Shown here piece by piece: positions 32,527 through 40,475 of a stretch of 64,000 nt of DNA (positions are counted from its first letter, which is position 1; each line of letters opens with the position of its first letter). The notes under the pieces were generated by a model. The model was given only the letters and a program-made list of their open reading frames with translations, was not told the DNA's origin and made no database searches. The position numbers and the translations under genes are program-made. The stretch comes from Escherichia phage S127 BCL3. The stretch lies in the sequence record OQ626344. One strand, 5' to 3'.

Positions 32527-32760
32527 ATGAAAGTTAAATTTCTTACAGATTTAGGGTACCCTTCCTTGGTTGACTGCGTTGGTAAAATTGTGGAAGCAAA
32601 ACGGCTATCTGCAAACGATAATGTTGTCATGGTTAAGGGAAAAGATTTACTAGCTGCAGGTGCAGAGTCTGGCAGGATCTCTCCTGACTATACGTATTAC
32701 CTGTCTTTAAGTAATCTACCAGAACGAGGCGGCAAAGGCCTTGAAGTTGTGGAGGAGTGA
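32527..32760 (+). CDS. small acidic protein, expanded family member A
   Basis: MKVKFLTD start, DLLAAGA block, C-terminal LEVVEE; AGGAGG RBS. Confidence 0.55.
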   Translation: MKVKFLTDLGYPSLVDCVGKIVEAKRLSANDNVVMVKGKDLLAAGAESGRISPDYTYYLSLSNLPERGGKGLEVVEE

Positions 32761-32765
32761 CAGGT

Positions 32766-33302
32766 ATGCTTCTGATTAACTGGGAAGACCTCTATGGGGA
32801 CAAAGACCCTGTTGCGTTTGTTGATCGTAGGTGGAGGTACACTGAAGAACAACTGGCTGCAAAAAATTTAACTGCAAAACGCAGAAAGATCATTCAGTGC
32901 AAGTACAAATACGCACAGTTTGCTGCAAAAGTGTCTCCACAAATCGAGAGTTTTGTACTTAAATTGTATGACGAGTACCTCAAATTCAAATTGGATTTTG
33001 TACAGGTATACCGTGCACAGGTACGTCCAGATACCAACATCTGCAGATGGAAGGTTGTTTGTGATGGTAAAGATTTGCCGCTCAGTTTGACAATTGAGTG
33101 GCGTTGGGGGTATCATGAGTGCGGTTTGTATGATATTTGGGATGTCATTGTAGATCCTGCTAAGTACCTGAACACAGAGGAGCTGGAATATATCAATAAG
33201 GTTATTCTAGATATGTTTTTCAGCTACACCCATGAAAACTCTGAGAAAGAACGGGATAATTTTCTTGACACCCTCGGCAACCACCTGCAGTGTACAATTT
33301 AA
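32766..33302 (+). CDS. hypothetical protein
   Basis: ATG with GGAGGAG RBS; 178 aa. Confidence 0.5.
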   Translation: MLLINWEDLYGDKDPVAFVDRRWRYTEEQLAAKNLTAKRRKIIQCKYKYAQFAAKVSPQIESFVLKLYDEYLKFKLDFVQVYRAQVRPDTNICRWKVVCDGKDLPLSLTIEWRWGYHECGLYDIWDVIVDPAKYLNTEELEYINKVILDMFFSYTHENSEKERDNFLDTLGNHLQCTI

Positions 33303-33320
33303 CCTACAAAGGAGGAGCCA

Positions 33321-33557
33321 ATGAGTATAGATGCTGTGCTGATAGGTTACCTGGTAGTAGCTGTTCTAACAGCAGTAATCTTGGCAGGTATATGCATCGT
33401 GTCTACACGAAGGGTGAAGTTTGATGATTTTATCACCATCATCACTGCTGCGCCCTTTTGGCCTGTTGTTATCTTCATCGTAATAATGTGCCTAGTTGAT
33501 TACCACAAGAATATCCGTAAGGAGAAAAAGGAGAGTAGGGATGGATACCGCACCTAA
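33321..33557 (+). CDS. small membrane protein (two predicted TM helices)
   Basis: 78 aa; hydrophobic stretches LIGYLVVAVLTAVILAGICIV and FWPVVIFIVIMCLV; AAGGAGGAG RBS. Confidence 0.5.
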   Translation: MSIDAVLIGYLVVAVLTAVILAGICIVSTRRVKFDDFITIITAAPFWPVVIFIVIMCLVDYHKNIRKEKKESRDGYRT

Positions 33558-33776
33558 AACTGTTTATACTGTTCTTAAAGAGATTGCATTCTACGCAGAT
33601 CTTAGCCGGGCACCTTTATGGGAAAAGAATATGTATTTAAAATGGTGCGTGAAATTAGGGGGGCCTTCTAATGTTTCAAGCCATGTTTATTGAAATGCTC
33701 TCTGGGGTATTACTGCTGGTAGCCATTTTAGGTGGCGCGGCGCTGATGTATAATTATCTTGAAAAAGGGGACAGTA

Positions 33777-33962
33777 ATGACAAAAAATAAATCCTTAGAA
33801 CAGGCTGAAAACCTTCTCCACGAGCTGGTAAAGGAGTGGAAAGTTGAATACTCAGATTTTAATGCAAGAGAGGGGGAAGATTATTGGCCTACGGAGCGCT
33901 CAGAGGGAGAGTGGTATCAAGATTTCATAGAATGGCTATATCAGACGTGCGATGAGGGGTGA
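33777..33962 (+). CDS. hypothetical acidic protein
   Basis: ATG with AAAGGGGA RBS; 61 aa. Confidence 0.4.
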   Translation: MTKNKSLEQAENLLHELVKEWKVEYSDFNAREGEDYWPTERSEGEWYQDFIEWLYQTCDEG

Positions 33963-33964
33963 CG

Positions 33965-34420
33965 ATGTTTGTTAAATATGTAAAAACGTGCCTCAACAAC
34001 CTTGGTAGAGAGCATTGGTACACACTGCTTGAAAAAGGAGAAATTTTAACAAAATCTGGAAAGATAACTTTGATACCTTTGGACGATAAAGACCCGTCAC
34101 TACTTGTCATAGATGATTACGTTACAGGTGTGTCGTACGAGGTATCTGTGGAGAGGTTAATACGCAGATCTGGAGGTCCTTATGACCGAAGAGAGTATGT
34201 TTTCGATTCCGTTACAGAGAAGGAAGATCCGTCTCTAATGTTTAGGATGGTAATCAGGGATATGAAATCATCTATAAATAGGATCGTAAAGGACATTAAG
34301 GAGCCTTTTAGGGTAAAAGTTAAGAAGTTTTTTGATTCTAAGATCAACATACTTGCAGTTGTGCTAGGCGTAATTCAACTTCTGTTAATTTTGCACTATT
34401 TTGAACTGTTGTTTAAGTAA
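33965..34420 (+). CDS. hypothetical protein with C-terminal TM helix
   Basis: ATG with GAGGGG RBS; C-terminal ILAVVLGVIQLLLILHYF. Confidence 0.45.
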   Translation: MFVKYVKTCLNNLGREHWYTLLEKGEILTKSGKITLIPLDDKDPSLLVIDDYVTGVSYEVSVERLIRRSGGPYDRREYVFDSVTEKEDPSLMFRMVIRDMKSSINRIVKDIKEPFRVKVKKFFDSKINILAVVLGVIQLLLILHYFELLFK

Positions 34421-38776: not shown

Positions 38777-39171
38777 TGGTAAGTCTATACCGTGTTGAGT
38801 ATAGCTCGGATACTGTATACAACGTAAGAAGCAAAGATCGCAGTGATAGAGTGCAAGAAATGTATGTTCTTGCAGACAGTCCGTTATCTGCAGCGTTTAA
38901 GGCAGGAGCTCTTGCATCTCGTTGGAAATTCGAGGGCGGATCTTTCTATGAAGAAACCCTTGAAGATTCTGTTGTTATTTCTTCTGTAGAGGTTTCAACT
39001 GACTACGAAGGGAAAAAGTTCGTAATGCGGCACCCACACAGTAACATTGCGTACTACTGGGATGTTTTGAACAATGAGTGGACTCCTGATATTCAGAAGG
39101 CCACTGTTCTAACCCCATTCCTGGCAGATAAGTTCCCACCAGAAGGTAATTTATCTGCACTGTTTCAGTAA
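38776..39171 (+). CDS. hypothetical protein, paralogue of 36571-36969
   Basis: Shared HPHS...YYW...EWTP C-terminal block; same position after a family member. Confidence 0.5.
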   Translation: MVSLYRVEYSSDTVYNVRSKDRSDRVQEMYVLADSPLSAAFKAGALASRWKFEGGSFYEETLEDSVVISSVEVSTDYEGKKFVMRHPHSNIAYYWDVLNNEWTPDIQKATVLTPFLADKFPPEGNLSALFQ

Positions 39172-39180
39172 TTTTATGCC

Positions 39181-39220
39181 ACACAGGTGTTGACAACACC
39201 AACCCTGTGTGCAATAATAC
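39181..39220 (+). promoter_or_regulatory. promoter flanked by inverted repeat CACACAGG / CCTGTGTG
   Basis: TTGACA at 39191, palindrome GTGTTGACAACAC over the -35, AATAAT -10-like; GGAGAC RBS downstream. Confidence 0.45.
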
Positions 39221-39247
39221 CTTCATCTTAACAAGATAGGAGACCGA

Positions 39248-39508
39248 TTGATGAAGATTAAATTGAAAAACCTTGAAACGGCAGAGATTCAGGAAGGTGT
39301 TGATTTCCGTTCTAAAGATGGAGACATCCTAGAGGCGAATGTCCCGACATATAAGTTGATTAAAGGTTTTGGCAACGTTCCGGAGGAGGATATTACAGAC
39401 ATTCTTATGATGTTGATCCTTGACGGGACTGTGTTTGTAGGTGAAGGTGAGAACGCTATTGCAATCCCGAGCCATTTTTATGAAGTAGTTGACGAAGAGG
39501 TGCTGTAA
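39248..39508 (+). CDS. small acidic protein, expanded family member G
   Basis: MMKIKLKNLE start, C-terminal TVFVGEGENAIAIPSHFYEVVDEEVL. Confidence 0.5.
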   Translation: MMKIKLKNLETAEIQEGVDFRSKDGDILEANVPTYKLIKGFGNVPEEDITDILMMLILDGTVFVGEGENAIAIPSHFYEVVDEEVL

Positions 39509-39859
39509 ATGAAAGTAGAGATCACAGGTTTTGATATGAATGCGGTTCCGGAAGATATTTTAGCTAAACTCCCGGAAGGTTTTGGTAACGGTGTTGTGGT
39601 TGATGCTGTTCCCCCTACCAAAGACATCCTGCTGCAGTATGGTGTGGCAGAGGAAGATGTTGATAAAGTTCTTACAATGATGGCAATCGACCGTGTTGTC
39701 GTTGTTAAAGGTCTTGAAGGTTTTGATAACGATCCTCTGATTATTCGTGGTGATGACTATCGTGTCATCGACAACGAAGGCCAAGAGTTCTACGAACCTT
39801 CTGCTGAAGATGTTCTTAACTTACTACTGGAAGCAGGCACCGCAGAGGAGGAAGAATAA
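39509..39859 (+). CDS. small acidic protein, expanded family member H
   Basis: MKVEITGF start, VVVVKGLEGFDNDPLII block, poly-E tail; starts 1 nt after G. Confidence 0.5.
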   Translation: MKVEITGFDMNAVPEDILAKLPEGFGNGVVVDAVPPTKDILLQYGVAEEDVDKVLTMMAIDRVVVVKGLEGFDNDPLIIRGDDYRVIDNEGQEFYEPSAEDVLNLLLEAGTAEEEE

Positions 39860-40188
39860 TGAAAATTGATCCGTTACTGAAGGCTCGTGCAGAAAAAGCA
39901 TACACTATCAAGCTGACCTCTCTGGTCCCTACTTGTCATCCGGATGTAGGTTGGCCTGAAGGCTTGGTAGAGGGGACTGTAACAGCTGCATACCTTCCTA
40001 ACATCAAATACCTCATGGAGATCTTGGAGATGGATGAGGAAACGGCAGAACAGTTCCAGTTAGACATGAAGCAAAGTGGGACTCTGGTTATTCACGGGTG
40101 GTATAATACTAAAGATGCAGAAGATCCCTTGGTAACTTCTAATCTGGCATATGAGATCTTAGGGCCTTTGAACTTGGGGGAAGACTAA
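39859..40188 (+). CDS. hypothetical acidic protein
   Basis: 109 aa; overlaps upstream stop (TAATG). Confidence 0.45.
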   Translation: MKIDPLLKARAEKAYTIKLTSLVPTCHPDVGWPEGLVEGTVTAAYLPNIKYLMEILEMDEETAEQFQLDMKQSGTLVIHGWYNTKDAEDPLVTSNLAYEILGPLNLGED

Positions 40189-40475
40189 TGAAAGATTTGG
40201 TTAAGATCAAGATTAAAGACACCAATGGAGAACTCAGCCATTTTGGAATTAACGATGGTGACGAACTGATCGCCCACCTGCCTACCAAGGAAGTTGTAAG
40301 CAAAGCGGTTGCCGGAGAAGAAGATGCAATGCAGGCTGCAGGTGTGGATGAAAACTATGTAGCAATGTGTATGTGCCGAGATCAGGTTGTTCTGTATAAA
40401 GCGTATCGACCAAATGGAGCACCTGAGTGGCTTGTTTTCCGACCCGAAGGGTATGAAATTTTAGAGACGCTATGA
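40188..40475 (+). CDS. small acidic protein, expanded family member I
   Basis: MKDLVKIKIKD start, C-terminal WLVFRPEGYEILETL. Confidence 0.45.
   Translation: MKDLVKIKIKDTNGELSHFGINDGDELIAHLPTKEVVSKAVAGEEDAMQAAGVDENYVAMCMCRDQVVLYKAYRPNGAPEWLVFRPEGYEILETL

Follow-up and report, generated by a model that had tools for sequence, protein, structure and literature searches.

Large virulent phages, the T4-like phages among them, carry arrays of many small early or host-takeover open reading frames (ORFs). We describe here such a block of small genes in a stretch of 64,000 nucleotides from Escherichia phage S127 BCL3 (sequence record OQ626344; hereafter the window), where ten genes, designated A to I and X, lie on the plus strand between positions 32527 and 40475. 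Like the T4-like arrays, it consists of short, tightly packed, mostly acidic ORFs behind predicted sigma-70-type promoters; in contrast to them, paralogy of the ten genes is demonstrable or plausible, and a single fold is predicted for all. Sequence comparison and structure models indicated two families of five members each, which appear to be joined only by a predicted SH3-like fold and an N-terminal tetrapeptide.

Small beta-barrels of the SH3-like type are found in SH3, KOW, and PsaE domains and in the C-terminal domain of retroviral integrase, and the likeness of the ten proteins to them is predicted from the models. A stand-alone SH3 protein (DUF7244) that adjoins the lysis cassette has been described in the T1-like Drexlerviridae (PMC13164509). 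The present proteins resemble it as small, stand-alone proteins with a predicted SH3 fold from phages of Gram-negative hosts, and the lambdoid copies of one of our families likewise lie just upstream of lysis genes. However, they belong to another sequence family, they form a ten-gene array whereas the DUF7244 gene is single-copy, and the array lies among nucleotide-metabolism and small early-type genes, not in a lysis module.

Some of this grouping is already known. The genes are databased as hypothetical, and PHROGs places A, B, and C in PHROG 5009 (1e-31 to 1e-38), with gene E matching weakly, and groups two further genes of the locus, Y1 and Y2. PHROGs neither unites the ten genes nor assigns them a fold or function; E and F are split off, and the second family is dispersed over five singleton groups. 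The seven members outside A, B, and C each found a PHROG of their own (13920, 13661, 11868, 12359, 12155, 12457, and 12794). The window is from a Vequintavirus, an rV5-like E. coli myophage. Its region 32000-41000 was 98.7% identical to Escherichia phage B9-1 and matched 121 phage records, most of them from Vequintavirus, whose rV5-like myophages have genomes of about 136 kb.

Two families of small proteins

The initial annotation had proposed nine ORFs of a single family, and all nine were found on the plus strand where it had placed them. For two of them, ATG starts at 36087 and 39251 are probably the true ones rather than TTG at 36084 and 39248, because the orthologue lengths of 74 and 85 amino acids and the GenBank annotation agree with the ATG starts. 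An iterated local hidden Markov model (HMM) search and all-against-all BLASTP were conducted over all 482 ORFs of at least 40 amino acids in the window. BLASTP paired B (36087..36311, 74 amino acids) with C (36301..36558, 85 amino acids) at E = 4e-13, and A (32527..32760, 77 amino acids, the minimal barrel form) with B at E = 1.5e-6. The A/B/C profile then recruited gene E (38176..38439, 87 amino acids) at 7e-6 and gene F (38444..38776, 110 amino acids) at 2.7e-4, and no further ORF among the 482 fell below E = 0.2 with this HMM.

Profiles were compared by hhalign after each subfamily had been enriched with orthologues, including those of a divergent 128-kb relative, L016. The probabilities within this first group ranged from 85 to 99.5% (B-C 99.5%, A-B 99.3%, A-C 95.8%, C-F 95.4%, B-F 90.4%, A-E 88.5%, and B-E 87.2%). 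The full-length profile of PHROG 5009 matched A (2.5e-36), B (2.1e-38), and C (4.1e-31), matched E weakly (1.2e-4), and did not match F, while our own profile recovered all five at E <= 2.3e-15 and gave E > 4 for D, G, H, X, and I. The DL(I/L)AAGA block, which had been described as common to all nine proteins, was present in these five and absent from the other four. At the level of sequence, A, B, C, E, and F constitute a robust single family, hereafter family 1.

The ORFs at 37814, 39251, 39509, and 40188 were never recruited to family 1. When seeded separately, these four, namely D (37814..38083, 89 amino acids), G (39251..39508, 85 amino acids), H (39509..39859, 116 amino acids), and I (40188..40475, 95 amino acids), were mutual best matches together with an ORF overlooked by the initial annotation, X (39859..40188, 109 amino acids; E = 5e-29 with the family 2 HMM). 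I was supported by both hhalign and this HMM. The hhalign probabilities were 88.9% for G-H (83 columns), 84.3% for H-X, and 45.9% for D-I (84 columns), and were lower for X-I (38%), H-I (34%), G-I (29%), and D-G (23%); both alignments of D were near full-length. These profile comparisons define D, G, H, X, and I as a second family (family 2), real but weaker.

The two families were then compared with each other. Thin profiles of five sequences each gave no match in the first profile-profile test, and with the enriched profiles no cross-family pair of subfamilies rose above 5%. At the family level hhalign gave 12%, and a greedy alignment gave 36% (E = 3.8e-4) over 70 collinear columns. The score of 25.1 compared with 8.2 ± 1.5 for column-shuffled profiles and was reached by none of 200 shuffles. 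With the MK(V/I)K columns deleted, however, it fell to 10.9 against 7.5 ± 1.6, a value reached by 2 of 100 shuffles. Because the score collapses on this deletion, the sequence link between the families appears to be essentially the N-terminal MK(V/I)K tetrapeptide. Thus the comparisons revealed real similarity within two groups and no single demonstrable family: the nine-member proposal holds for five proteins, whose similarity is more than compositional, and is not supported for the four that group with X.

Two other ORFs with MKIEI... starts, at 32089 and 42821, were considered as extra members, and neither profile matched them. For the latter (42821-43102, plus strand), the match to PHROG 12108 begins at residue 23, with the sequence MKIEIF, so the true start is probably an internal ATG near 42887 rather than the GTG at 42821.

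Predicted fold, physical properties, and expression signals

The AlphaFold models of B and G (pLDDT, the model's per-residue confidence, of 92 and 89) were five-strand SH3-like barrels, with five antiparallel strands in SH3 order forming a partly open barrel. The family 2 model carried a helical insert in the beta2-beta3 loop. A and B had a short version of this loop and C, E, and F a longer one, and in D, G, H, X, and I it formed a helical hairpin; it was the site of greatest difference among the paralogues, with the insertions falling at the same loop. The insertion in E was helical-looking, and F had large insertions both after beta1 and in the loop. For both families the prediction is accordingly a five-strand SH3-like beta-barrel that stands alone.

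A Foldseek search against BFVD matched only uncharacterised small phage proteins, with template modelling (TM) scores of approximately 0.7 to 0.87. These included vequintavirus paralogues and, at about 0.7, proteins of the T4-like phages RB49 and Merlin. An 87-amino-acid protein of Shigella phage CM1, which has the length of E and is presumed to be its orthologue, matched the B model at 0.80. At E <= 1, Pfam gave no family for nine of the ten proteins, and X and I had irrelevant sub-threshold matches only. Neither the ten members nor their distant relatives matched the SH3 clan of Pfam (SH3_1, SH3_3, KOW, and DUF7244), and Y1, Y2, and the multi-domain relatives described below gave no informative Pfam match. 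Sequence searches of the PDB with family 1, family 2, Y1, and Y2 returned only spurious matches to designed proteins, maltoporin, and kelch proteins. A "virion structural protein" label considered for a family member proved to belong to the orthologue of the ORF at 33959-34420.

All ten proteins were acidic, as the initial annotation had stated, with isoelectric points (pI) of 4.05-5.39 and net charges from -1 (A) to -20 (H, which has an acidic C-terminal EEEE tail). The maximum Kyte-Doolittle score over 19 residues was at most 1.41 in the members versus 2.6-2.75 in membrane-like neighbours, and none of the ten had a hydrophobic stretch fitting a signal peptide or a transmembrane helix. The ten proteins are predicted to be soluble.

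GGAG-type sites precede the start codons. The tight packing noted earlier was confirmed: B and C overlap by 11 nucleotides, F/Y2, H/X, and X/I overlap by 1 nucleotide, and G and H abut. The proposal of one contiguous operon could not be maintained, since B comes 3.3 kb downstream of A, unrelated genes (a RaiA homologue among them) are interspersed, and promoter-like sites lie in the gaps. A sigma-70-like promoter (39190..39218, plus strand; TTGACA, 17 nucleotides, AATAAT, with TG) is a consensus match in the gap upstream of G-H-X-I. A near-consensus sigma-70 promoter (37284-37312, plus strand), likewise a consensus match, is found upstream of the RaiA homologue and is followed by a hairpin. 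The pattern of a terminator-like hairpin (40518..40540, plus strand) was found 3' of the G-H-X-I block. Because of the promoter-like sites in the intergenic gaps and this hairpin, the cluster is predicted to comprise several transcription units.

Duplication history and distribution

Y1 (36571..36969, plus strand, 132 amino acids) lies directly 3' of B-C, and Y2 (38776..39171, plus strand, 131 amino acids) directly 3' of E-F. They share 26% identity (E = 4e-9), and both belong to PHROG 7379. Each of these paralogues comes after two family 1 genes, which suggests that a three-gene module was duplicated as a segment long ago, giving [B, C, Y1] and [E, F, Y2]. The tandem duplication and divergence proposed initially is upheld, and includes this segmental event.

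The divergent relative L016 retained all ten members in the same order as 1:1 orthologues, with amino acid identities of 28-75% (A 75%, B 68%, E 60%, D 58%, F 55%, G and X 47%, I 46%, C 42%, and H 28%) that resembled those of neighbouring genes. H is the fastest-evolving member. Y2 was also retained there, and Y1 was replaced by an unrelated ORF of 96 amino acids. When the array was compared with that of phage EmilHeitz, a BASEL phage, the ratio of nonsynonymous to synonymous substitution rates (dN/dS) was 0.02-0.17 across the ten members; the measured neighbouring genes had 0.01-0.26, including a ClpP-like protease at 0.03 and a methyltransferase at 0.01. Judged from these substitution patterns, all ORFs of the array are real genes under purifying selection. 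The 1:1 orthologues in L016 and the low dN/dS further indicate ancient duplications with each copy individually maintained, and not the rapid diversification proposed initially. In a complete related genome, exactly five family 1 and five family 2 members were found, all inside this cluster.

In two independent metagenome assemblies of vequintaviruses (L024 2501-2713 and L025 2501-2713), a B/C chimera of 70 amino acids replaced both B and C. The crossover lay within the segment coding for DLIAAGA, at an 8-nucleotide microhomology, GCTGGTGC. This chimera points to natural variation of array copy number through recombination between paralogues. Another protein, P0027, joined a prophage-type N-terminus to the C-terminus of B at the DLIAAGA motif. 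In P0084, encoded on a contig of 657 bp, an unrelated N-terminus with Pfam PF24132 was joined to half of an X orthologue, the C-terminal one; this protein may be an assembly chimera or a recombinant.

Outside the array, an exhaustive HMMER search with the family 1 profile against 1.84 billion cluster representatives found only 45 proteins at E <= 1e-3. These were mostly 63-87 amino acids long and acidic (median pI 4.4), with the consensus MKVKLLNDGGY..GK.v.A...I.G.dLi.aGA..F...Y.F..G.E.EIvEE, and none carried a Pfam domain or a name. Some relatives were fused: P0097 comprised three family 1 domains and P0098 and P0125 two, and among P0115, P0110, P0118, and this fused set, a family 1 N-terminal domain preceded a C-terminal region without an informative Pfam match.

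Temperate enterobacterial phages carried family 1 as a single copy (L002/L003/L004, L015, which is mEp515, and L021-L023), at two sites. In lambdoid E. coli prophages and phage mEp515 the gene lay between the Q antiterminator and the holin. In a Morganella prophage, other prophages (P22-like among them), and viral contigs, it belonged to the early-left operon, where it followed the recombination genes and directly preceded NinX-like and MT-A70 methyltransferase genes, with the integrase next. The family 1 gene was the only one that these prophage and viral loci had in common with the window, so no partner gene is conserved with it. Within the array, A was nearest to the prophage homologues, and the 51% identity between A and the lambdoid copy (P0030) suggests exchange between virulent and temperate phages. 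Family 2 was found in vequintavirus-like contigs only. The lineage-specific expansion proposed initially is therefore borne out for family 2 but not for family 1, which lambdoid prophages, P22-like prophages, and other phage contigs also carry in single copy.

Regarding the neighbourhood, all genes of the array are annotated "hypothetical protein" in EmilHeitz, and the annotation upstream of it reads NrdG, PhoH-like ATPase, ClpP-like protease, and N6-adenine methyltransferase. A homologue of the ribosome hibernation factor RaiA (S30AE; Pfam PF02482, E = 1.1e-12) sits mid-array at 37359-37670 on the plus strand, and its L016 copy has 64% amino acid identity. The ClpP-like protease homologue upstream of the small-gene block (29902-30951, plus strand) has 349 amino acids. 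Bacterial ClpP has about 200, so this homologue may carry an uncharacterised C-terminal extension. Elsewhere in the window, seven tRNA genes (Pro, Met, Thr, Ser, Tyr, and Arg) lie at 1600-2411 on the minus strand, with a 99-nucleotide tRNA-like gene at 1844-1942 for which ARAGORN calls a four-base anticodon (atcc). Finally, 18 GenBank records named "Campylobacter phage" (host C. jejuni) were approximately 92% identical over the 9-kb region, and this host label looks doubtful.

Candidate functions and significance

We tentatively propose, with a confidence a little short of even, that the array encodes early-made, non-enzymatic protein-binding modules whose variable beta2-beta3 loop sets the partner. 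Each protein would be a cytoplasmic binding module made early by the host RNA polymerase from sigma-70-type promoters, and would act by stoichiometric binding of a partner protein rather than by catalysis. No match to a catalytic family was found among the Pfam, PDB-sequence, and annotated matches, which we counted in favour of such modules. The barrel core, and in family 1 also the GxDLIxAGA turn, would serve as the scaffold. The beta2-beta3 loop probably sets partner specificity, because the paralogues differ most there. This loop corresponds to the n-Src loop of canonical SH3 domains, which helps to form the ligand site. The array as a whole would be a collection of related adaptors or inhibitors that differ in their host or phage targets, serving host modulation or counter-defence; a host-takeover or anti-defence role, as suggested in the initial annotation, may apply. 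In family 1, multiplicity recurs, either as the tandem genes of this array or, elsewhere, by fusion into proteins of two or three domains, and this recurrence suggests that multivalency or co-assembly matters.

Several points weigh against this proposal. Searches of the literature on rV5 and Vequintavirus early genes, on paralogues, and on SH3-like anti-defence proteins turned up no account of this family, nor any functional data on it. The early timing rests on consensus promoter matches, and no transcriptome of an rV5-like phage was found in the literature. Anti-defence genes engaged in an arms race less typically show such strong conservation and so low a dN/dS. With the N-terminal MK(V/I)K set aside, the sequences did not establish that the two families are homologous.

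The last point raises the alternative that families 1 and 2 are unrelated neighbours that converged on a common small-barrel fold and on an MK(V/I)K start. Barrels of the SH3-like type occur very commonly, ORFs of the window that belong to neither family likewise begin MKIEI..., neither the HMM-sequence nor the per-subfamily hhalign comparisons matched across the families, and the family-level score falls to z ~2 without its first four columns. Nevertheless, the 70-column family-level alignment is collinear, its gap coincides precisely with the loop that insertions lengthen in C, E, and F, and the families are interleaved at one locus, with D between two family 1 pairs. We regard independent origins as unlikely, although they deserve serious weight. 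In a further alternative, the paralogues would be subunits of one or a few hetero-oligomeric complexes having a single function, with gene order and translational coupling providing the stoichiometry. Stop/start overlaps or abutment link G-H-X-I, B-C, and F-Y2, the ten members are strictly co-retained in L016, a three-gene module was co-duplicated, and the relatives with two or three fused domains fit by Rosetta-stone logic. Such a complex is nonetheless hard to reconcile with the single family 1 copies in temperate phages, which lack any other array neighbour, with natural relatives in which the B/C chimera shows one member to be dispensable, with the replacement of Y1 in L016, and with the distance of 3.3 kb between A and the remainder; we consider it clearly unlikely.

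More specific roles appear less probable still. The acidity of all members, most pronounced in H with its EEEE tail, and an array position suggestive of early expression would suit acidic proteins that mimic DNA or counter restriction in the manner of Ocr, ArdA, or Arn. However, a compact beta-barrel is predicted here, not the elongated helical form of Ocr or ArdA, and A is barely acidic. Moreover, the Vequintavirinae have been reported to be exceptionally susceptible to restriction-modification systems, without effective protection (PMC8594841), which disfavours an anti-restriction role; we rate this idea very improbable. An association with nucleic acids or ribosomes, as for the small barrels KOW, Sm, and OapB, would tie the proteins to the HPF/RaiA homologue embedded in the array, but their negative charge argues against it, and it seems quite improbable. 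Barely credible, in our judgement, is a function in lysis, as cell-wall-binding proteins or endolysin modulators comparable to the stand-alone SH3 (DUF7244) of T1-like phages. The lambdoid gene does lie between Q and the holin, and such a role has been proposed for that different SH3 protein (PMC13164509). Yet the present proteins lack a signal peptide or transmembrane segment and match neither the Pfam SH3 clan nor DUF7244, and the genes lie in early-type regions far from lysis genes both here and in P22-like prophages. The features of SH3b cell-wall-binding proteins were likewise absent, there being no export signal, Pfam match, or lysin neighbour in this phage.

Four results are new here. 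E and F have been joined to family 1; family 2 has been defined, with X among its members; both families share the SH3-like prediction; and a connection has been made to accessory genes of temperate phages and to relatives with fused domains. Small phage accessory proteins on a common fold are a known general kind, to which the result adds a new, unnamed family; alone it reveals no new mechanism. Few E. coli phages are isolated as commonly as the rV5-like ones, which also serve in biocontrol cocktails, and this block of theirs has been entirely "hypothetical". Reducing ten genes to two families and one predicted scaffold gives a compact target for deletion and interaction studies, a profile is supplied for a family without a Pfam entry, and an array of a virulent phage is linked to single-copy accessory genes of temperate enterobacterial phages. 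A bolder version of the binding-module proposal, which we offer as speculation with a rather small chance of being correct, is that the ten barrels are a diversified set of decoys or adaptors of SH3-like fold, which may co-assemble and of which each neutralises its own host factor or defence sensor, with the swappable beta2-beta3 loop as the specificity element. If true, they would represent a widespread scaffold on which phages evolve inhibitors and which has so far escaped notice, used singly by temperate phages and also as fused multi-domain proteins.

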